A stretch of 64,000 nucleotides of DNA from Escherichia coli (GTDB lineage Bacteria > Pseudomonadota > Gammaproteobacteria > Enterobacterales > Enterobacteriaceae): the NCBI RefSeq assembly GCF_022846255.1, contig NZ_AP025682.1. One strand, written 5' to 3'. Below, in pieces: positions 1-36,079 of the stretch. Positions within the stretch are counted from its first letter, which is position 1, and every line of letters begins with the position of its first letter. The notes beneath the pieces were generated by a model. That model was not told the DNA's origin and did not search any database. It worked only from the letters and a program-made list of their open reading frames with translations. The position numbers and the translations under genes were made by a program.

Positions 1-219
1 TTTTCGATCATTCGTGAGGCTGGAAGACGTGCAGGATTAGCTGTAAAAGCACATCCTCATATGTTACGTCATGCCTGTGGTTTTGCTCTGGCTGACAATG
101 GTGTCGATACCCGACTACTTCAGGATTATCTGGGTCATCGAAATATTCAGCATACTGTCAGATACACAGCCAGTAATGCTGCTCGATTTAAAGGGGTGTG
201 GAAAAAAAAGCCTCGTTAA
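1..219 (+). CDS. Tyrosine site-specific recombinase, FimB/FimE family, C-terminal 72 codons only (5' end outside window)
   Basis: Frame-1 translation ...HPHMLRHACGFALADNGVDTRLLQDYLGHRNIQHTVRYTASNAARFKGVWKKKPR* has the conserved catalytic tail of FimB/FimE-type invertases; stop TAA 217-219. Track ORF 71-277 is the overlapping other frame. Confidence 0.8.
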   Translation, partial: FSIIREAGRRAGLAVKAHPHMLRHACGFALADNGVDTRLLQDYLGHRNIQHTVRYTASNAARFKGVWKKKPR

Positions 220-231
220 AACAGTACCTTC

Positions 232-247
232 TGATTCAAAATGTCAG
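232..247. repeat. Left inverted repeat TGATTCAAAATGTCAG
   Basis: Perfect 16-bp reverse-complement match to 494-509; starts 13 bp after recombinase stop. Confidence 0.7.
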
Positions 248-493
248 ATTCCTACGTTTTCCTCAATTCTTCCATAAAAAAACAGCTCATTCAATTAAAT
301 AAAACACATAACATGTTGATATTTCTCGCTAAAGTAAAATAACCCCATGATTTGAAATGATTAACCATAAAGGTCATACCAGTGATCAGTTTTCACTCGC
401 GTTGTTAAATAACACAAAATTAAAAACAATAAAAATCAAACAAATTAGATTTATATTCCAAGAAAATTAAATATTCAGGCTATTAAACCAAAC

Positions 494-509
494 CTGACAT
501 TTTGAATCA
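494..509. repeat. Right inverted repeat CTGACATTTTGAATCA
   Basis: Perfect reverse complement of 232-247; lies inside a perfect 33-bp palindrome (490-522) that ends 27 bp before the LuxR start codon. Confidence 0.7.
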
Positions 510-548
510 AAATGTCAGGTTTTGTAGCAATGGCGTGGACGAGTCTGA

Positions 549-1343
549 ATGAAGAAGCCTCTGGTTATTATCAGTGCCTGTCAGTTCACCAGGCTGGCAC
601 TGGAGTCTCTCATCCCAACGGACAGGTATCTCGTGCGGGTGTACAGCAACGTCACTACAGAGGTTGAATTCGTTTTAAAGACCTCCTGTGGCTACCTGTT
701 AGCTGATATCCCATCGCTTCCTTCGGGGGAGTTGGTTCTTCTGGCTTGTCTTGTCCGCTTGCGGAGTGATGCCGGGCAATGGCAGGTCTGCCTGACCGGT
801 GACTCCGACTGGTTCGATAATGCTCCTGCTGCAAGTCTGTATAACGGCTTCCCACGCATCGGCACCATGCTGACAGCGAGTCGTTATCAGAATCAAATTA
901 TCCGCTGGTTACTACGTCCTTTGCCCGGCGATATGAGCGATTTCTGGCTCCTGACTGCACGGGAGTTGAGCGTGCTTAAGATTCTGATGCAGGGTATGAG
1001 TTTCAGTGAGATTGCCCGTTATGAACAACGCAGTTCAAAGACCCTGCATGCGATTGCCACACGGGCTTTAATGAAACTTGGACTGGGAACACTGAGCGAT
1101 TTCAGGCTGCTCTATACGGGATGCGGTGACAGCAGAGTGAAACGGAATATACGGCTACATGCAAAATATATCGGACAACATTCCGCTCATCGACTCACTC
1201 AGTATGTGCAGAACATGGTATCCGGAATTCTTTATCCAGAGAAAGTTGCCGTTGGTGAATCAATAAATTCTGACGCCATATCCGGAAAAGTACTTTCCGG
1301 ACAAAGAAAAAATATGTCTAAAAAAAGACCAGGATTGTTATGA
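549..1343 (+). CDS. LuxR-family transcriptional regulator (264 aa), atypical N-terminal domain
   Basis: ATG at 549; LuxR-type HTH ...LTARELSVLKILMQGMSFSEIARYEQRSSKTLHAIATRALMKLGLGT...; N-terminus receiver-like but lacks the acidic DD pocket. Confidence 0.75.
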   Translation: MKKPLVIISACQFTRLALESLIPTDRYLVRVYSNVTTEVEFVLKTSCGYLLADIPSLPSGELVLLACLVRLRSDAGQWQVCLTGDSDWFDNAPAASLYNGFPRIGTMLTASRYQNQIIRWLLRPLPGDMSDFWLLTARELSVLKILMQGMSFSEIARYEQRSSKTLHAIATRALMKLGLGTLSDFRLLYTGCGDSRVKRNIRLHAKYIGQHSAHRLTQYVQNMVSGILYPEKVAVGESINSDAISGKVLSGQRKNMSKKRPGLL

Positions 1344-1496
1344 CACAGCAGCGTTGTTACTACCCCCCACTGCGGCGCATACGGACTCGCTACAGTGTAG
1401 GAGCCAAAATATTTCTACTGCTCTGGGCTGCAGGATTGGGAGGCACGCTGTACAGCCTGTACAGCGTGCTGGCGTACTGACATCTGTGAGGGAAGG

Positions 1497-2258
1497 ATGC
1501 GTTTCGTTCTTTTCTGTCCCTCAGGAATTGTACCAGCGCAGTTCGCAGCTCTATCAACCGGTTCTGTCGGCAATGTTACCTGCATCAGAACAGAAGAGGA
1601 GTTACGCAATAAATTGCGGCACAGGCCACAGAGTGTCGTGATATCGGCAGGGCGACCTGCCGAATGCGCTGAAATGTGGTTCCGATTTTATCGGGATCAC
1701 TCATTCGTGGTGGTGTTGTGCGTCGCACCCTTTTTTCTGCCACCAGATGTGAGTATTTCTGGCGTTCTCAAAAACCTGAGGTTACTGAAACCAGGAATGT
1801 CAGTAGAGCGTGTCATCAGTATTGCAAATGCCTCTGGTGGGTTTTCAGGGCTGAAACATGCAGAAATTTTGCCAGTTATGGACAGTTACTCTGTCTTTAT
1901 GAAAGAGGTGAATAACCGCACAAAGACAATCGTCATGTCAGAACGCTTCCCGGAAAAGCAAAAGAAGGTGTTGTCGTTGCTTCTTGCCGGACACAGCTGG
2001 GAATACAGTGCGCAGTTTCTCAAAACGGGGATAAGACAGATATGGCTTGCCGAGCAGTCGCTAAAAAAGCGTTGGGGAATACCGGACAGCATGTCATTGC
2101 GGGAAGCCCTGCTGCTTGGCAGCAATAAATTTCACGGTGATGGAAACGCATTGGAAACAACGAATGCCATGACATTGCGTGAAAACGGAAATACCAACAG
2201 GTATTCCGTGGTGGTAAATGCAGGGACGCAGGCTTTATCTCTGCATAAATATAAATAA
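1497..2258 (+). CDS. Second LuxR-like regulator (253 aa), degenerate HTH
   Basis: ATG at 1497 with AGGGAAGG SD; C-terminal ...EKQKKVLSLLLAGHSWEYSAQFLKTGIRQIWLAEQSLKKRWGI... resembles a LuxR/GerE HTH. Confidence 0.55.
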   Translation: MRFVLFCPSGIVPAQFAALSTGSVGNVTCIRTEEELRNKLRHRPQSVVISAGRPAECAEMWFRFYRDHSFVVVLCVAPFFLPPDVSISGVLKNLRLLKPGMSVERVISIANASGGFSGLKHAEILPVMDSYSVFMKEVNNRTKTIVMSERFPEKQKKVLSLLLAGHSWEYSAQFLKTGIRQIWLAEQSLKKRWGIPDSMSLREALLLGSNKFHGDGNALETTNAMTLRENGNTNRYSVVVNAGTQALSLHKYK

Positions 2259-2299
2259 GTGGGAAATTGAAATTAGTTACCAGAATGGAGAATTTCTTC

Positions 2300-4762
2300 A
2301 TGAAAAACAGTAAGGCATTTTACCGCAGCGCATTAGCAACAGCTATTGTTATGGCTCTTTCTGCACCAGCATTCGCTGCTGATAAAGCGGTATCAACTGA
2401 TTCGGTTACGCTGAATAAAGATAAGACAACTCTGGATCAAGATGTTGTTATTAACGGTGATAACAAGATTACAGCCGTAACAATTGAAACGTCAGATTCA
2501 GATAAAGACCTTAATGTTACTTTTGGCGGTCACGATATTACCGCCGCATCAACGGTAAACCAAGGTTTCGTTGAAGGTGTAAAAGTTAGCGGTGACAAAA
2601 ATGTTGTGATTAATGCTACAGGCTCCACCATCACAGCTCAAGGTGAAGGCACCTATGTCCGGTCTGCAATGGTCATTTCTTCAACTGGCGATGTTGTTGT
2701 TAATGGCGGTAATTTCGTTGCAAAAAATGAAAAAGGTAGTGCGACAGGGATATCTCTGGAAGGGCCCCAGGGAAATAATGTCACGCTCAATGGCACAACC
2801 ATAAATGCTCAAGGCAATAAGAACTCCAGCAACGGCTCCAGGGCAATTTTTGCTCAAAAGGTTAGCGGATTGGATGGTTTTAACGGTGATGCAACAGACA
2901 ACATTACCCTTGCTGGCTCAAATATTATTAATGGTCGGATTGAAACAATACTTATTGCCAAGGAGAATAAGGGAACTCATACAGTCAACCTGAATATTAA
3001 GGATGGCTCAGTAATTGGGGCGGCTAATAATAAACAAACAATTTATGCCTCAGCTTCGGCACAAGGAACAGGTTCAGCAACGCAAAATTTAAATTTGTCT
3101 GTTGCTGATTCAGCCATCTACTCTGATATCAAGGCCCTTTCTGTAAGCAATAGTTCAGTCGGTACCACAACAAATGTAAACATGAACGTTGCCCGCTCTT
3201 ACTGGGAAGGTAATGCTTATGCTGATGCTTATGGCGATAAAGCGAGTAGTAATCTGAATATAAATCTTTCCGATGGCTCAGTCTGGAAAGGTAACGTAGG
3301 TAAAGGTCTGGATGGTAGTGCACGTGTCACACTGAAAAACTCCAGCTGGGATGGTGATGTCAACAACGCCAAAACTGCTGTTTTTCTGACGGATGGTTCT
3401 GTGTGGAATGGTGCTGTTTCCATTAACGCGCCAGTGGACCGCGCATCAGTACCAATGGGCTCGGTTCAACCAAATAAAAGCAGTGTATCTCTGCAAAACG
3501 GGTCTGTCTGGAATGTTACGGGAGCCTCAACTGTTGATGCTCTGGCAGTAAAAGACAGTACGGTTAATATCACGAAGGCTACAGTCAATACTGGCACGTT
3601 TGCTTCTCAAAACGGCACTCTGATTGTTGATGCCTCTTCTGAAAACACTCTGGATATCAGCGGAAAAGCGAGCGGTGACTTGCGTGTTTACAGTGCGGGT
3701 TCATTGGATCTTATCAATGAACAAACGGCATTTATTTCTACCGGCAAAGACAGCACTCTAAAAGCCACAGGCACAACGGAAGGTGGTCTGTATCAATATG
3801 ACCTGACACAGGGAGCTGATGGTAACTTTTATTTCGTAAAAAACACGCATAAAGCATCCAACGCCAGCTCCGTGATTCAGGCAATGGCAGCTGCTCCGGC
3901 TAACGTTGCTAATCTGCAGGCTGACACGCTCTCCGCCCGTCAGGATGCTGTCCGTCTGAGCGAAAATGACAAGGGCGGCGTATGGATTCAGTACTTTGGC
4001 GGTAAACAGAAACATACCACCGCGGGAAATGCATCCTATGACCTGGATGTAAATGGTGTAATGCTGGGTGGTGATACCCGCTTCATAACTGAAGATGGTA
4101 GCTGGCTGGCCGGTGTGGCGATGTCTTCTGCGAAAGGTGACATGACTACCATGCAGAGCAAAGGTGACACTGAAGGTTACAGCTTCCACGCTTACCTGAG
4201 CCGCCAGTATAACAACGGTATCTTCATTGATACTGCTGCACAGTTTGGTCACTACAGCAACACGGCAGATGTTCGCCTGATGAATGGTGGCGGTACCTTT
4301 AAAGCTGACTTTAACACCAATGGTTTCGGTGCGATGGTTAAAGGTGGTTACACCTGGGAAGACGGTAATGGCCTGTTTATTCAGCCATATGCCAAACTGT
4401 CTGCTCTGACGCTGGAAGGTGTGGATTATCAGCTCAACGGCGTGGACGTTCATTCTGACAGCTATAACTCTGTGCTGGGTGAGGCCGGTACGCGCGTGGG
4501 TTATGACTTCGCTGTGGGCAACTCGACCGTTAAACCTTATCTGAATCTGGCCGCACTGAACGAATTCTCTGATGGCAACAAAGTCCGTCTGGGTGATGAG
4601 TCTGTCAATGCCAGCATTGACGGTGCAGCATTCCGCGTGGGTGCAGGTGTACAGGCTGATATCACCAAAAACATGGGAGCATATGCTAGCCTTGACTACA
4701 CCAAAGGTGACGACATTGAGAACCCGCTACAGGGTGTAGTTGGTATCAATGTGACCTGGTAA
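2300..4762 (+). CDS. Autotransporter (type Va) adhesin, pertactin/AIDA-like passenger plus C-terminal beta-barrel
   Basis: Signal peptide MKNSKAFYRSALATAIVMALSAPAFA; passenger repeats (NGTTINAQG, DGSVWKGNV, DGSVWNGAV, NGSVWNVTG); C-terminal translocator ending ...GVVGINVTW. Track ORF starts at TTG 2267; ATG 2300 has GGAG SD. Confidence 0.85.
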   Translation: MKNSKAFYRSALATAIVMALSAPAFAADKAVSTDSVTLNKDKTTLDQDVVINGDNKITAVTIETSDSDKDLNVTFGGHDITAASTVNQGFVEGVKVSGDKNVVINATGSTITAQGEGTYVRSAMVISSTGDVVVNGGNFVAKNEKGSATGISLEGPQGNNVTLNGTTINAQGNKNSSNGSRAIFAQKVSGLDGFNGDATDNITLAGSNIINGRIETILIAKENKGTHTVNLNIKDGSVIGAANNKQTIYASASAQGTGSATQNLNLSVADSAIYSDIKALSVSNSSVGTTTNVNMNVARSYWEGNAYADAYGDKASSNLNINLSDGSVWKGNVGKGLDGSARVTLKNSSWDGDVNNAKTAVFLTDGSVWNGAVSINAPVDRASVPMGSVQPNKSSVSLQNGSVWNVTGASTVDALAVKDSTVNITKATVNTGTFASQNGTLIVDASSENTLDISGKASGDLRVYSAGSLDLINEQTAFISTGKDSTLKATGTTEGGLYQYDLTQGADGNFYFVKNTHKASNASSVIQAMAAAPANVANLQADTLSARQDAVRLSENDKGGVWIQYFGGKQKHTTAGNASYDLDVNGVMLGGDTRFITEDGSWLAGVAMSSAKGDMTTMQSKGDTEGYSFHAYLSRQYNNGIFIDTAAQFGHYSNTADVRLMNGGGTFKADFNTNGFGAMVKGGYTWEDGNGLFIQPYAKLSALTLEGVDYQLNGVDVHSDSYNSVLGEAGTRVGYDFAVGNSTVKPYLNLAALNEFSDGNKVRLGDESVNASIDGAAFRVGAGVQADITKNMGAYASLDYTKGDDIENPLQGVVGINVTW

Positions 4763-4801
4763 GAATAAAGCAGTCGGTTCCCCTGTCGACTGTTATACCC
4801 C

Positions 4802-4830
4802 CCTGCAGGCAGCAGTATGCTGCCTGCAGG
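4802..4830 (+). terminator. Perfect 13-bp stem / 3-nt loop hairpin downstream of autotransporter (no U-tract)
   Basis: CCTGCAGGCAGCA-GTA-TGCTGCCTGCAGG, 40 bp after stop. Confidence 0.35.
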
Positions 4831-4946
4831 CTATAAATATCCAGTATTCATGATGCTGGCTTTTTGCTGATATTTACCCTGAACATTCCTGATACAGACT
4901 ATTAATACAATCTTATCTGCGACAGATTTCATTTTCTGGATATATT

Positions 4947-5615
4947 ATGAATGAACAAATCAAACAGGATATCGATCTGATTGAGATTTTATTTTATCTG
5001 AAGAAAAAGATTCGTGTTATCCTTTTTATTATAGCTATCTGTATGGCAATGGTGCTGTTGTTTCTGTATATCAATAAAGATAATATAAAAGTGAGTTACA
5101 GCCTAAAAATAAATCAGACAACACCAGGCATACTTGTTAGCTGTGATAGCAATAATAACTTTGTCTGTCAGACCACAATGACTGAAGATGTTATTCAGCG
5201 AATTACTACATTTTTTCAGACCAGCCCAGATGTCAAGAACAGAGAAATAAAGCTGGAATGGTCAGGAGATAAGAGAGATTTACCAACTGCTGAAGCGGAA
5301 ATATCTCGCGTGCAGGCGTCTATCATCAAATGGTATGCGTCAGAATACCATAATGGCAGGCAAGTTCTCGATGAGATACAAACGCCTTCAGCAATTAACA
5401 GTGAGCTTTATACAAAAATGATATACCTGACCAGGAACTGGTCACTATATCCGAACGGTGATGGCTGTGTCACTATAAGCTCACCAGAAATAAAAAATAA
5501 ATACCCTGCTGCCATTTGCCTGGCTCTGGGATTTTTTCTAAGTATTGTGATTTCTGTAATGTTTTGCCTTGTCAAAAAAATGGTAGATGAATACCAACAA
5601 AACTCTGGGCAGTAA
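4947..5615 (+). CDS. ykgH: Predicted inner-membrane protein YkgH
   Basis: 222 aa, N-terminal TM segment (ILFIIAICMAMVLLFLYI) and C-terminal TM; position next to ykgG matches ykgH. Confidence 0.6.
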   Translation: MNEQIKQDIDLIEILFYLKKKIRVILFIIAICMAMVLLFLYINKDNIKVSYSLKINQTTPGILVSCDSNNNFVCQTTMTEDVIQRITTFFQTSPDVKNREIKLEWSGDKRDLPTAEAEISRVQASIIKWYASEYHNGRQVLDEIQTPSAINSELYTKMIYLTRNWSLYPNGDGCVTISSPEIKNKYPAAICLALGFFLSIVISVMFCLVKKMVDEYQQNSGQ

Positions 5616-5685
5616 TAAACAGCATTCTGACAGAGAGTGCCTGTATAAAACTATAGTGACAGTGACCGGGAAGGGAGCCCGTCTT

Positions 5686-5708
5686 CAGGAATGGATTCCT
5701 GTCTTTTT
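5686..5708 (+). terminator. Intrinsic terminator after ykgH
   Basis: CAGGAAT-GG-ATTCCTG hairpin followed by TCTTTTT. Confidence 0.5.
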
Positions 5709-5857
5709 AACTGTAAATATCCTGGCATTATTAATGTCAGGATATTTACAGAAGAGCAGCATAACCATGACGGAACGGGGTTAAGTCAGGTTGTCCTTAA
5801 CGTTATTCACAACCTCGTATACCGCCTTCAGGTTTATGTCCAGACTACATATCTCTC

Positions 5858-6553
5858 TCAGCAATCCTCAATAATCAGATACACCGCTTTCACCGGACCA
5901 TGAACCCCGACGACTTTGATAAGCTCAATGTCCGCCGTTGAACTGGGACCACTGATGATGTTAATACATGACGGCATTCGTTCACCGGCCTGCGCTTTCT
6001 GATGCAATTTTTCTGCGAGTTGCGCTACACGCGGCAGGATTGTGCTTTTACGCAGGATAAAAAGAGAAGATTCCGGGAGCAGGCTCAATGAACGCCCGCG
6101 CCCGGCGGCGGAAAAAAGAACCACGCCTCCCGATTCGGTTAAACCATATTCAGCATATACGACGCCCACTTTAGCCTGCTCTGCTTGTGATATGTTCTCA
6201 ATACCTTTCGCCGGATCCCAAACAACGGCATTGCATTCCTGCTGCAAACGTTCGCTAATCCCCAATTCCTCCAGCCTCGTGTCACCACTAATCACGACCG
6301 ACTGATCTCCCAGCTCTTTACACAGACGTATTGCAGCTTCTGCCGCCTTCGCCTCGCTGGTCAGTTCACAGCGCGTCAACATAACATCGCTGGCAAACTG
6401 GATAAACGCGTCACAGCGCTGCTGTTGGGTAAGTTGGGTAAGCCGCTCGTTAGCATAGTTGTTAAGCGGCGCATCTTCTGCTTGCGGTTCAAGTCGCAGC
6501 GGGCGACCCAGTGCCTGAGCAACGTTATTCAAAAATTCGCTCCGATTATCCAT
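5858..6553 (-). CDS. ykgG: LutC-like protein YkgG (LUD domain)
   Basis: 231 aa from internal ATG (MDNRSEFLNNVAQALG...) with AGGAG SD; start overlaps ykgF stop (ATGGATAA). Confidence 0.8.
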   Translation of the reverse strand: MDNRSEFLNNVAQALGRPLRLEPQAEDAPLNNYANERLTQLTQQQRCDAFIQFASDVMLTRCELTSEAKAAEAAIRLCKELGDQSVVISGDTRLEELGISERLQQECNAVVWDPAKGIENISQAEQAKVGVVYAEYGLTESGGVVLFSAAGRGRSLSLLPESSLFILRKSTILPRVAQLAEKLHQKAQAGERMPSCINIISGPSSTADIELIKVVGVHGPVKAVYLIIEDC

Positions 6554-7973
6554 TCTTTTTCTCCTGCGCCTGATGTTTCTTAAACCAACTACGGAAACTC
6601 TCTCCGTCAGCTTCAGGAAGATCGCGTGCTTCCATCCAGTCGCTAATCGCGCCAAATTTGAGTGGTGTTTTGCCGCCATTGATAAACCAGCTTGCCGCAT
6701 GAGCACCAGCCATCATCCCAACTTTCCACAATCCTGGATGACTATTGGCATAAGCGAACATTTTTATCGCCCGTTGCTCTGCTTTTGCGGTGATCCCTTT
6801 TTCAGCCATCACCCGACGATGACGCAAAATCAGTTTTGACAGCGGAATACGCACCGGACACACGCTGTCACAAGCGGTGCATAAAGAGCAGGCGTAGGGT
6901 AAATCTTTAAAATCTTTATAGCCGCCAAGTAACGGGGAAATCACCGCACCAATTGGCCCTGGATAAATAGAGCCATATCCATGACCGCCAATATGGCGAT
7001 ATGCCGGACAAGTATTCATACAAGCCCCGCAGCGAATACAGCGCAGCACATCCCGAAATTCAGAGGCCAGCACCTCAGAACGCCCGTTATCGACAATAAC
7101 CAGATGAAACTCTTCAGGACCATCAACGTGCCCCGCTTCGCGCGGTCCTGTCAGCCAGGTGTTGTATCCCGTCAAACGTGCACCAACGGCACTGCGCGCC
7201 AGCATGGTGATCAATACATCTACCTCTGCAAACGTGGGGGCAATACGCTCCATTCCCATCACTGCAATATGCGTTTTAGGCAGCGTGGTACACATTCGCG
7301 CATTACCTTCATTGGTCACCAGGCATACCGAACCGGTCTCTGCCACCGCGAAATTACAGCCGGTAATACCTATTTCAGCACTGAGGAAATCTTCGCGGAT
7401 TTTTTGCCGAATGAATAAGGTCATCGCTTCAGGCGTTTCCGGCCCCTCATAGCCCAGACGTTCGTGTAGCACTCGACGGATCTGATGGCGATCTTTATGA
7501 ATTGCCGGGACCACAACATGAGAGGGCGGATCTTGATCCAGCTGGAGAATGTATTCACCCAGATCGGTTTCAATCACCTGAATGCCAGCATCCTGCAACA
7601 CATGATTGACACCAATCTCTTCGGTCACCATCGATTTAGATTTCACCACCTTCCGGGCATTTTTGCGTTGGGCAACCTGTAAAATGTAGCGGGTAGCGTC
7701 TTCTTTGGTTTTTGCAAAATAGACGTGACCGCCGTTTTGCGTCACTTTTTCTGAGAGCTGGTACAGATAAGCGTCGAGATTACTCAGAACATGATCACGT
7801 ATCTGGGCGGCCCGATCGCGCCACTCCTCCCAGTGCCCCAATTCATCGACCATTTTTTGCCGATTTGCCCCAATACGCTGCTGCGCGTTTGCCACCGCTT
7901 TGCGCATGATCGGATCTTCAATTTGCTGACGGATGCGTGTCTTAAAATCTGTATTACTGGTTTTGATCGACAT
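6546..7973 (-). CDS. ykgF: LutB-like iron-sulfur oxidoreductase YkgF
   Basis: 475 aa; two 4Fe-4S ferredoxin Cys clusters (CIRCGACMNTCP, CSLCTACDSVCP). Confidence 0.85.
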   Translation of the reverse strand: MSIKTSNTDFKTRIRQQIEDPIMRKAVANAQQRIGANRQKMVDELGHWEEWRDRAAQIRDHVLSNLDAYLYQLSEKVTQNGGHVYFAKTKEDATRYILQVAQRKNARKVVKSKSMVTEEIGVNHVLQDAGIQVIETDLGEYILQLDQDPPSHVVVPAIHKDRHQIRRVLHERLGYEGPETPEAMTLFIRQKIREDFLSAEIGITGCNFAVAETGSVCLVTNEGNARMCTTLPKTHIAVMGMERIAPTFAEVDVLITMLARSAVGARLTGYNTWLTGPREAGHVDGPEEFHLVIVDNGRSEVLASEFRDVLRCIRCGACMNTCPAYRHIGGHGYGSIYPGPIGAVISPLLGGYKDFKDLPYACSLCTACDSVCPVRIPLSKLILRHRRVMAEKGITAKAEQRAIKMFAYANSHPGLWKVGMMAGAHAASWFINGGKTPLKFGAISDWMEARDLPEADGESFRSWFKKHQAQEKKNG

Positions 7974-7983
7974 CTTTATATCC

Positions 7984-8703
7984 TCAGCGGCTCATCAGCA
8001 CTTCAGCAATATGCATCACTTTGACTTTCTGCCCTTCCCGTTGTAATCGTCCACTGATGTTCAGCAGGCAACTCACGTCAGCACCAATTAAATACTCAGG
8101 GCGGACTTCCATCAGGTGCACAACCTTTTCTTTCACCATCTCGCCGGATATTTCGGCCATTTTGACCGAGAACGTGCCGCCAAATCCGCAGCAGGTATCC
8201 TGTTCAGCAAAGGTCAACAGCTCCAGTCCACGCACATTTTTCAGCAGCGTAAGTGGTTCGTCCTTCACCCCCAGCTTACGGGCCAGGCTACAAGATGGGT
8301 GATACACCGCTCTCCCTTGCAAACTGGCACCTACATCGACTACCCCTAATGTATTAACAATAAAAGAGGTGAGATCCTGCATACGCGCGGCAACCTTTTC
8401 GGCACGTGATGCCCATTCAGGTTCATCCGCCAGATACGTCGGGTAACTTTTTACGGCATAGGTGCAAGAGCCAGCCGGTGAAATAATGGGATCGTCGTTA
8501 TCCTCCAGTGCGGCGATCAGATTTTTCATCCCTGGAATCGCTTCTTTGATATAACCACTATTGATCGCAGGCTGACCGCAGCATCCCTGTTTCTCCGGGA
8601 AATTTACGCGACAGCCGAGTTTTTCCAGTAGCAGCACGGAGTCTCGTGCCATTCTTGATTTCAGGGCGTCACCAATACAGGTGACAAAAAAATTGACATT
8701 CAC
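7984..8703 (-). CDS. ykgE: LutA-like Fe-S oxidoreductase YkgE (Cys-rich CCG domains)
   Basis: 239 aa, GTG start, CCG motifs (CCGQPAINSG, CCGFGGTF); first gene of ykgEFG. Confidence 0.85.
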   Translation of the reverse strand: MNVNFFVTCIGDALKSRMARDSVLLLEKLGCRVNFPEKQGCCGQPAINSGYIKEAIPGMKNLIAALEDNDDPIISPAGSCTYAVKSYPTYLADEPEWASRAEKVAARMQDLTSFIVNTLGVVDVGASLQGRAVYHPSCSLARKLGVKDEPLTLLKNVRGLELLTFAEQDTCCGFGGTFSVKMAEISGEMVKEKVVHLMEVRPEYLIGADVSCLLNISGRLQREGQKVKVMHIAEVLMSR

Positions 8704-9231
8704 AACTAATACTCCATTACTTCATGCCCATTTATGCCCGATGGTTCCCCCCTTCCGGGGGATCAATCATCAATAAATATGGCGTTCTTTTTTAATTGGC
8801 TAGCAACATACCACCCCTCATTTGTATGACAAATGATAATCTTTCATCTAAACTTCAAATGCAATAACTAATTTTATTTCTTTCGGCATCGCTCACATTT
8901 TATAGGGAAATCGACGATCATTTTTGGCATAAGAAATCCATTTAAAAAGGCTACATCCCTTATACCTATTCAGTGCTACTTATTCAGGGGTTATTGAGAT
9001 ATACACTGATGGTGTACAAACAAAATCACCAACAATAATTACGTATCAAGTAATAGTCGGCATTTTATTTAATTAAAGCAATTTAGTTTGCGTTTTTATT
9101 TAAAAACTGAGCTAGAGTCCATCAAAAAAAAATATATAAAGCCCAAAACCACCGTTGGAAATAGAAATAGTTGAAAGGCTCACAACTCCCGGAATGCGGA
9201 TTATCTTTACCCTGATTTCTGGCGGTTTTAT

Positions 9232-10086
9232 TCAGGGTGCAAGCTGTCTGACCCTTTCCCGATATTCTCCCGGAGTACAACCAAACTCGCGGACAAACGC
9301 CTTGTGAAAAGATGATTCACTGGCATAGCCTACTGACTCAGCGATCACCACAACAGGGAGCATTTCCCGGGAAAACATCTGGGCCGCTATTTGTAGACGC
9401 AACTTTGTTAATACAGCCAGCGGCGTGGTTCCGGAAACATCACGGAAAAGCTGGGCAAAACTTGCCCGGGACATGTGGGCGATGCTGGCCAGCGATTCGA
9501 CGGTCCAGGCGTGTCCTGGCATTTCCAGCATTTGCTGTATTACCGCACCAAGACGTGGATGCAGAAGCAAACTGAGAATGTTTTTCTCTGTATTAACCTG
9601 TGCAATCCACTCACGCACCGCGAGGGTAAAGAATGTAGCGCAGATCTGGCTACACAGAGCATCCACTCCCGGCATTGCCGATCTGGATTCCTGTTGTAAA
9701 AACGGGATCGCCTCCCTCAGCCAGTTATATTCCACGCTATGGTTCACTGGTGCTACAAACAGCGTTTCCGGCAAAGATGTTAAAAAATAACGCGCCGAAT
9801 GTTGCAGCCGAAGAGTGCCACAGACAATACAGGTCGATTCATTATCGACATGACTCAGGCGATGAGCTGAATTTTGTGGTAGCAGGACCACATTTCCCGG
9901 GCGTAATCTAAAAATCTCCCCCGTCGGCATTTCCAGCTTCGCCGCTCCTTGCGTTAACGCATGCCAACGAATAACCGACAATTCCCCGGCACCATGTGGA
10001 AGTTGCCAGTCACTTCCTAACACGCAATTCTTATCGATCGTTCCTTGTGGAGCGTTAAGCATCAACAAACGGCTAAGGGCATCCAT
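9232..10086 (-). CDS. rclR: AraC-family regulator RclR (reactive chlorine response)
   Basis: 284 aa from MDALSRLLMLNAPQG with AGGAG SD; C-terminal AraC HTH; divergent from rclA. Confidence 0.85.
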   Translation of the reverse strand: MDALSRLLMLNAPQGTIDKNCVLGSDWQLPHGAGELSVIRWHALTQGAAKLEMPTGEIFRLRPGNVVLLPQNSAHRLSHVDNESTCIVCGTLRLQHSARYFLTSLPETLFVAPVNHSVEYNWLREAIPFLQQESRSAMPGVDALCSQICATFFTLAVREWIAQVNTEKNILSLLLHPRLGAVIQQMLEMPGHAWTVESLASIAHMSRASFAQLFRDVSGTTPLAVLTKLRLQIAAQMFSREMLPVVVIAESVGYASESSFHKAFVREFGCTPGEYRERVRQLAP

Positions 10087-35888: not shown

Positions 35889-36038
35889 AGGGACAACAAA
35901 ACCTGAAACTTCTTCCATTTTCCAGCAACAATGCCTCTTCTTCTGTAGCGTTCTCCGGATCTACATCATCCTGAAGTAGCGCGATATGATCACTGACTGT
36001 CCGCATCAGAATATGAAAAGCAACGTTTTTAACCTATA

Positions 36039-36065
36039 AAAATGGCGCTATATTTGCGCCATTTT
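36039..36065 (-). terminator. Intrinsic (bidirectional) terminator after yagU
   Basis: AAAATGGCGC-TATATTT-GCGCCATTTT perfect 10-bp stem flanked by A/T runs. Confidence 0.6.
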
Positions 36066-36079
36066 TATCATTCAAAGCA

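Follow-up and report, generated by a model that had tools for sequence, protein, structure and literature searches.

A perfect 13-bp hairpin behind the adhesin gene hyxB at the right end of the Escherichia coli PAI-X island

Stable hairpins in the 3′ untranslated region (3′ UTR) that lack a U-tract can block 3′–5′ exonucleases, as in stabilisers of the REP type and in the trimmed ends of Rho-terminated transcripts. The hairpin described here, termed H2, lies behind the adhesin gene hyxB of E. coli and resembles both in being a stable 3′ UTR hairpin without a U-tract, which we use as a working model, but it occurs as a single copy per genome, unlike the repeated extragenic palindromes of the REP/BIME class, to which it shows no similarity. 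With the intrinsic terminators of E. coli it has in common a G+C-rich stem-loop on the sense strand soon after a stop codon, whereas its tail, CUAUAAAUAU, is devoid of a U-tract, the latter belonging to a weak hairpin 10 nt further on, and its stem of 13 perfect pairs (−25.6 kcal/mol) lies at the long and strong end of the terminator range.

At the DNA level, template switching between the arms of an inverted repeat during replication homogenises the arms and inverts the spacer (PMC8604942), and it has been suggested that perfect inverted repeats in E. coli owe their over-abundance and their conservation to this process (PMC5941160). H2 matches this class in its perfect arms, its short spacer and the exact inversion of the spacer between lineages, although at H2 one inversion event suffices and no ongoing flipping is seen. 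Loops in flip and flop orientations among lineages are likewise known from the small inversions at non-coding chloroplast hairpins (Kim and Lee 2005, as cited in PMC12928735); within that account these inversions are recurrent and homoplasious, whereas H2 exhibits two stable alleles and a loop of only 3 nt. Elements of the IS200/IS605 type, finally, resemble H2 in that a hairpin lies a few bases from one terminus, within an insertion devoid of target duplication and of terminal inverted repeats, but H2 differs from them in the lack of a transposase and of a second copy anywhere, and in its perfect rather than bulged stem. H2 is an undescribed instance of an ordinary element, a gene-end stem-loop and template-switch-maintained perfect inverted repeat, in a known island.

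Sequence, fold and position of H2

The analysed stretch of DNA, hereafter the window, comprises 64 kb of E. coli DNA, and near-identical genomes annotate hyxB, encoding an outer-membrane autotransporter, upstream of the hairpin and ykgH downstream of it. The hyxB gene is the adhesin gene upaB (PMC12282228), and the gene cluster ipbA(fimX)-hyxR-hyxA-hyxB between the core genes betA and ykgH has been described as PAI-X, UpaB cluster or GI-4, with a G+C content of 43.08% (PMC4844996). The locus belongs to this known island of ~6 kb, as gene order, the betA and ykgH flanks and base composition all fit; the island measures 5,994 bp with 43.0% G+C in the carrier locus L003, in agreement with the published 43.08%. 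The start of hyxB was fixed by comparison with annotated HyxB. The features referred to below are the following, in window coordinates:

549–1343: hyxR (open reading frame and translation)
1497–2258: hyxA (open reading frame and translation)
2300–4762, + strand: hyxB (= upaB), autotransporter adhesin gene, stop codon TAA at 4760–4762 (open reading frame, translation and RefSeq annotation of near-identical genomes)
4769–4794, + strand: H1, first 3′ UTR hairpin, 8–9 bp including two G·U pairs, −10 kcal/mol (folding)
4798–4803, no strand: C-run of varying length, its last two bases inside the H2 stem (genome comparison)
4802–4814, + strand: left arm of H2, CCTGCAGGCAGCA (sequence)
4815–4817, + strand: loop of H2, GTA; its reverse complement TAC in 403 E. 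coli genomes
4818–4830, + strand: right arm of H2, TGCTGCCTGCAGG (sequence)
4836–4838, no strand: right end of the PAI-X / UpaB-cluster island, core DNA common to K-12 from here on (homology and junction sequences)
4841–4866, + strand: H3, weak hairpin (8 bp, three G·U pairs) followed by CTTTTTG, terminator-like, in core DNA (terminator scan)
4947–5615, + strand: ykgH, first core gene downstream

H2 is a 29-base inverted repeat (4802–4830) consisting of two 13-nt arms that are 100% complementary and a 3-nt loop. Nine of the 13 stem pairs are G–C and none is G·U, in comparison to two G·U pairs in H1 and three in H3. The minimum free energy calculated for the RNA was −25.6 kcal/mol (z = −6.1), a stability reached by none of 200 shuffled sequences and identical for both loop versions described below, while the single-stranded DNA fold yielded −16.7 kcal/mol. 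The full H2 pattern had no second copy in the 64-kb window and was absent from all of 100 dinucleotide-preserving shuffles. Scanning the whole window for perfect stems of ≥13 bp with loops of 3–8 nt resulted in three hits (490–522, 4802–4830 and 36036–36068), whereas block shuffles gave none. H2 is thus real and a chance origin is excluded. The initial annotation, which had reported a 13-bp perfect stem with a 3-nt loop, an autotransporter gene upstream and ykgH beginning 117 bp after the hairpin, agrees in its sequence and coordinates with 4802–4830, in the upstream gene with the hyxB coding sequence at 2300–4762, and in the spacing with the ykgH start at 4947 and the hairpin end at 4830.

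Some variation was seen at and near these stems. The C-run reaching into H2 is C6 in the window and in 42 genomes, most others having C5, and strain GPEC1240 (L013, around 6000) has a 4-bp deletion (GTTA) in the stretch separating H1 and H2. The stem at 36036–36068 reads ATAAAAATGGCGC / TATATTT / GCGCCATTTTTAT and is the sole other perfect stem of ≥13 bp past the first 5 kb.

As the final structure within the island, H2 begins 39 nt past the hyxB stop codon and ends 6–8 bp short of the island/core junction. Homology to K-12 and to every other island-free genome starts at window position 4837, and since the dinucleotide AT can be assigned to either side, the right boundary of this uropathogen-associated island is set exactly at 4836–4838. 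K-12 lacks the island, and its betA–ykgH spacer reads ...CTCATGCTTCAT / ATCCAGTATTCATG... (the slash marking the junction), while carriers read ...CTTCAT / CGTGACAATC... at the left and ...CCTGCAGGCTATAAAT / ATCCAGTATTC... at the right junction. Neither K-12 nor any of at least 3,106 further genomes without the island contains H2, and all of them show one identical empty junction, present on several distinct flanking haplotypes. The alignment against island-free strains that the initial annotation had proposed, with a hairpin at the same site as the outcome that would speak against an island signature, therefore found the hairpin missing at the empty site. Two hairpins of the core DNA flank the insertion point, namely an inverted repeat with 10-bp arms after betA, and H3. 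No direct or inverted repeats shared by the two island ends were found above shuffle level: the best direct alignment scored 7 (shuffle mean 8), with AT as the only common sequence, and the best inverted one scored 9 (shuffle mean 8, maximum 14). A target-site duplication at the island junctions was not found either. An island boundary signature, which had been among the initial suggestions, is in this way borne out by position, H2 being island DNA 6–8 bp from the junction, but not as a marker or mediator of that junction, as the ends are without repeats and H2 is single-copy and occurs nowhere else.

A copy of hyxB is also carried by true IncF plasmids of mouse E. coli, and there the homology stops at window position 4767, 5 nt past the stop codon; the plasmid copy has a different, imperfect hairpin 14 nt after its own stop. 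It follows that the 69 bp from 4768 to 4836, comprising H1 and H2, are a module private to the chromosomal island, so that the last 69 bp of the island represent a private 3′ UTR module of the adhesin gene upaB. In the IncFIB conjugative plasmid of mouse E. coli M19 (L020, 427–7300), hyxB sits beside a gene for an S6-family (SPATE-like) peptidase, and both flanks are unlike the chromosomal island.

Two insertions of IS1 were observed at the same spacer. In the island-free strain TW14425 (L019, 2220–2240 and 2990–3010) the 9-bp target duplication CATATCCAG spans the exact PAI-X insertion point, and an independent second IS1 in another genome (L012, 6890–6915) ends about 20 bp further, inside H3. 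The short betA–ykgH spacer seems prone to insertions.

Distribution and loop orientation among E. coli genomes

The 74-bp segment following the hyxB stop codon was present in 1,889 of 5,426 complete E. coli genomes, at a single locus in each. H2 itself likewise occupied one locus per genome, apparent second places corresponding to the same palindrome on the other strand. H2 was found in E. coli only. With the loop left free, the exact pattern matched none of 100,044 species-representative genomes of bacteria and archaea and none of 2.9 million viral contigs, and a 201-bp query around H2 gave no match in phages and, in a plasmid collection, full-length matches in three megabase-sized records only. 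Rfam 15 contained no matching family, merely sub-threshold hits to miRNA-precursor models, the best with 27 bits against a threshold of 87. An unbiased, flank-anchored scan of metagenomes retrieved three contigs only, all with the TAC loop. Relatives of HyxB in other species, which were sought for covariation analysis, were not found, and in an outgroup search with YkgH essentially all source-named matches were E. coli or Escherichia. Matches to YkgH with 79% identity, which could pass for a divergent species, were rejected, as they derive from K-12 contigs in which every G is read as A (Logan SRR27475577 and SRR27475578; L010, L011), which suggests bisulfite-type or otherwise converted libraries.

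Analysis of the carriers revealed two loop forms, which we separated by searches with a word size of 28 centred on the loop. The GTA loop was detected in 1,483 genomes and the TAC loop in a further 403, about a fifth of the carriers, so that the two forms account for 1,886 of the 1,889; exact matches amounted to 1,435 for GTA (and 42 more with the C6 variant of the C-run) and 384 for TAC, and the few non-exact loop matches that were inspected proved to be flank deletions or indels. In L004, L005, L013 and the three metagenome contigs the hairpin reads CCTGCAGGCAGCA-TAC-TGCTGCCTGCAGG, with the same arms and a loop that is the exact reverse complement of that in the window. Across about 1,886 genomes the stems show essentially no variation. 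The orientation of the loop goes with a single-nucleotide polymorphism 7 nt downstream, with aaat accompanying GTA and aaac accompanying TAC, and possible recombinants between loop and polymorphism amount to a handful of genomes at most. This tight linkage indicates that one old inversion event explains the data, and for the same reason recurrent flipping of the loop is unsupported. In practical terms, the loop can be used as a two-allele marker of island lineage.

That three neighbouring substitutions should by coincidence yield the reverse complement, in a segment otherwise 98–99% identical between lineages, would be very improbable, and spacer inversion appears the sensible reading of the GTA/TAC difference. 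H2 displays what characterises a perfect inverted repeat maintained by template switching, that is, complementary arms and a spacer inverted between relatives, and judged from the aligned sequences the perfect arms and the mirror-image loop are best explained at the DNA level by template switching during replication. The two loops are a clean natural bacterial example of spacer inversion at a perfect inverted repeat. Since template switching homogenises the arms, the perfection of the stem alone does not argue for a special function, and the absence of G·U pairs fits DNA-level homogenisation as well as selection on the RNA. This calls for caution more generally, as stems that seem unusually perfect may owe their perfection to homogenisation of the DNA rather than to an unusual function. 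All 13 pairs of H2 were invariant in the sequences compared, with no covariation, and the hyxB 3′ end together with the H1/H2 module was at least 97.6% identical in all listed carriers. Given that carriers differ by at most ~2% and that the stems never vary, conservation and covariation are uninformative either way.

The hyxB 3′ region and the role of H2

Three consecutive structures, H1, H2 and H3, follow the hyxB stop codon, and the whole 151-nt stretch folds with z = −4.5. Because of their G·U pairs, H1 and H3 form in RNA of the + strand only, which is consistent with sense transcription through the region. The tail of H2, CTATAAATAT, has no U-tract and H2 was not called by the terminator scan, the sole terminator-like call between 4600 and 5100 being H3. 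This hairpin starts 10 nt downstream of H2, with a stem at 4841–4859 (−7.9 kcal/mol) and a tract of U5–6, the T-tract reading TTTTTTG in other strains. The initial view that H2 has no downstream U-tract and is not a canonical intrinsic terminator accordingly holds for the immediate tail and for H2 alone, but it overlooked the terminator-like hairpin with a T-tract 10 nt further on, a weak terminator of the canonical type.

Island-free strains also carry H3, including the well-pairing GCTGG allele, while in K-12-type genomes a G weakens the hairpin to −3.2 kcal/mol, this weak allele being specific to them. Co-evolution of H3 with the island was rejected on the ground that the strong GCTGG allele is found in island-free strains as well. 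H3 is weak and would serve betA in these strains, and its pairing with H2 may be fortuitous. As to H1, one ETEC strain (L014, around 2999) has an A-to-G change that retains the pair as G·U, and seemingly compensatory changes in H1 were traced to an alignment artefact from non-homologous L004 sequence.

We propose, with a probability of roughly 0.5, that H2 is a 3′ UTR stem-loop which, together with H3 or Rho, ends and stabilises the hyxB mRNA and insulates ykgH. Once transcribed, H2 would fold into a very stable stem-loop (−25.6 kcal/mol) that, without a U-tract, would not itself act as a canonical terminator. The hyxB transcript would end at or just beyond the weak terminator H3, or via Rho, and H2 would then block 3′–5′ exonucleases, thereby fixing the mature 3′ end of hyxB, and would also act as a brake on read-through, shielding ykgH from transcription of the island. 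Among the functions initially suggested for the hairpin, an RNA-stabilising 3′ structure appears the most plausible. In favour of a role in the RNA, H2 lies 39 nt past the stop codon in a run of hairpins, with a hairpin bearing a U-tract adjoining, and the unrelated plasmid context likewise provides hyxB with a 3′ hairpin. According to RT-PCR in APEC strain DE205B, each of the four island genes is transcribed as a unit of its own, and no joint transcript spans any of the three intergenic regions (PMC4844996). The hyxR–hyxA intergenic region holds another perfect hairpin without a U-tract (1443–1469). If H2 does control the stability of the upaB mRNA or read-through into ykgH, it would offer a lever on the expression of a colonisation factor.

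A serious though less probable alternative is that H2 is a neutral DNA palindrome, which arrived with the island, was kept perfect and once flipped by template switching, and has no role in RNA or in protein binding. The purely Watson–Crick arms, unlike those of H1 and H3, the inverted spacer, the described upkeep of perfect inverted repeats by template switching in E. coli (PMC5941160; PMC8604942), the lack of covariation in the stem and a plasmid hyxB copy that does without H2 all agree with such an origin, whereas functional 3′ structures typically occupy a place like that of H2, 39 nt past a stop codon and in a row of three hairpins on the sense strand. Moreover, the three strongest palindromes near the island are all intergenic there, while the other 59 kb has one perfect stem of ≥13 bp (36036–36068), a distribution that also speaks against neutrality. 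Rho-dependent termination or pausing, in which the C-rich, G-poor stretch UUCCCCUGUCGACUGUUAUACCCCCC would load Rho and H2 would pause RNA polymerase or mark a trimmed 3′ end, we consider unlikely. This post-stop stretch (4763–4801) has 12 C against 8 G and two C-runs, and no U-tract stands behind H2. Trimming of the end to a stable stem-loop is common in transcripts that terminate through Rho, which we also count in favour of Rho. The C-rich stretch is only about 40 nt long, however, and in part folded into H1, and the U-tract hairpin 10 nt downstream could terminate transcription independently of Rho.

That H2 served as a recombination or cleavage signal for the 6-kb insertion, in the manner of an IS200/IS605- or IS91-like subterminal hairpin or of a recombinase site, is very unlikely, even though it is subterminal, at 6–8 bp from the right junction, the island is without target-site duplication or terminal inverted repeats, and all carriers share the junction, the empty site likewise being one and the same in at least 3,106 genomes. 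Against a mobile structure of this kind stand the single copy of H2 in every genome, always at the same locus, and its absence from the 100,044 species-representative genomes, the viral contigs and the phages. The island encodes ipbA, hyxR, hyxA and hyxB only, without any HUH/Y1 transposase, its sole recombinase being the FimB-like invertase IpbA, and the H2 locus is fixed in about 1,886 genomes. A subterminal hairpin is present at the right end, as H2, while the left end exhibits weak, imperfect and non-distinctive pairings without a clearly comparable hairpin or repeat, and H2 is also unlike the hyxR switch repeats. An attachment site of the integrase type was not apparent, with no direct core repeat beyond AT at the two island ends, nor were the integron attC core sites RYYYAAC and GTTRRRY found at H2, where the nearest sequence, GTTATAC, fails at the RRR positions and the palindrome is perfect, without extrahelical bases. 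Hardly any weight is given to the variant in which H2 would be the DNA-level remnant end of a hairpin-dependent integration of the 6-kb PAI-X, of a single-strand/HUH or an undescribed type, with the mirror-image loop as a trace of hairpin or cruciform processing. We are just as sceptical of an operator, that is, of a HyxR/AutA or HyxA/AutR dimer (the island's two regulators of the LuxR/GerE type) occupying the 13+3+13 palindrome. DNA binding by both proteins has been described at the upaB promoter (PMC4844996), and long palindromes do occur in intergenic regions near island genes, but the rest of the window contains no more half-site matches than chance would give (28 against 18.8 expected), none lies in an island promoter region, a site downstream of the regulated gene would be unusual, and the three island palindromes have no clear motif in common.

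Further variation within the island

Three copies of the 13-mer TTCAAAATGTCAG lie upstream of hyxR, in direct orientation at 235–247 and 508–519 and inverted at 495–507. The copies at 495–507 and 508–519 abut and form a 39-bp near-perfect palindrome (487–525; −19.2 kcal/mol). By sequence, the arrangement looks like an IpbA/FimX-invertible promoter switch of hyxR plus an extra, third copy of the repeat. Between hyxR and hyxA, the perfect 27-bp palindrome at 1443–1469 consists of tandem CTGTACAGC units around the self-complementary octamer CTGTACAG and is not followed by a U-tract. Two such units are present in the window and three in strain 90-9281 (L005, 3838–3873), and in some genomes a small hypothetical open reading frame is annotated across the palindrome.

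Several independent internal deletions of the island were observed among the genomes. In O157:H7 (L002, 4919–6179) most of hyxB is missing and homology resumes at window position 4584, in GDSC2227PM (H265) hyxA is joined to 4721, and in 19AR0656-type genomes (L004, 4854–5005) hyxA is joined to 4795–4797 through an ATA microhomology, just left of H2. A deletion hotspot at H2 was considered and rejected, since a single deletion (19AR0656) ends 4–7 nt left of the stem, the others ending at 4584 (O157) and 4721 (GDSC2227PM) without clustering.

The HyxB protein encoded in the window comprises 820 residues, compared to 764–765 in most annotated genomes, and shares only 697 identical residues with the L003 protein. 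The about 55 extra residues are located in the passenger domain (residues about 333–393; window about 3300–3480).
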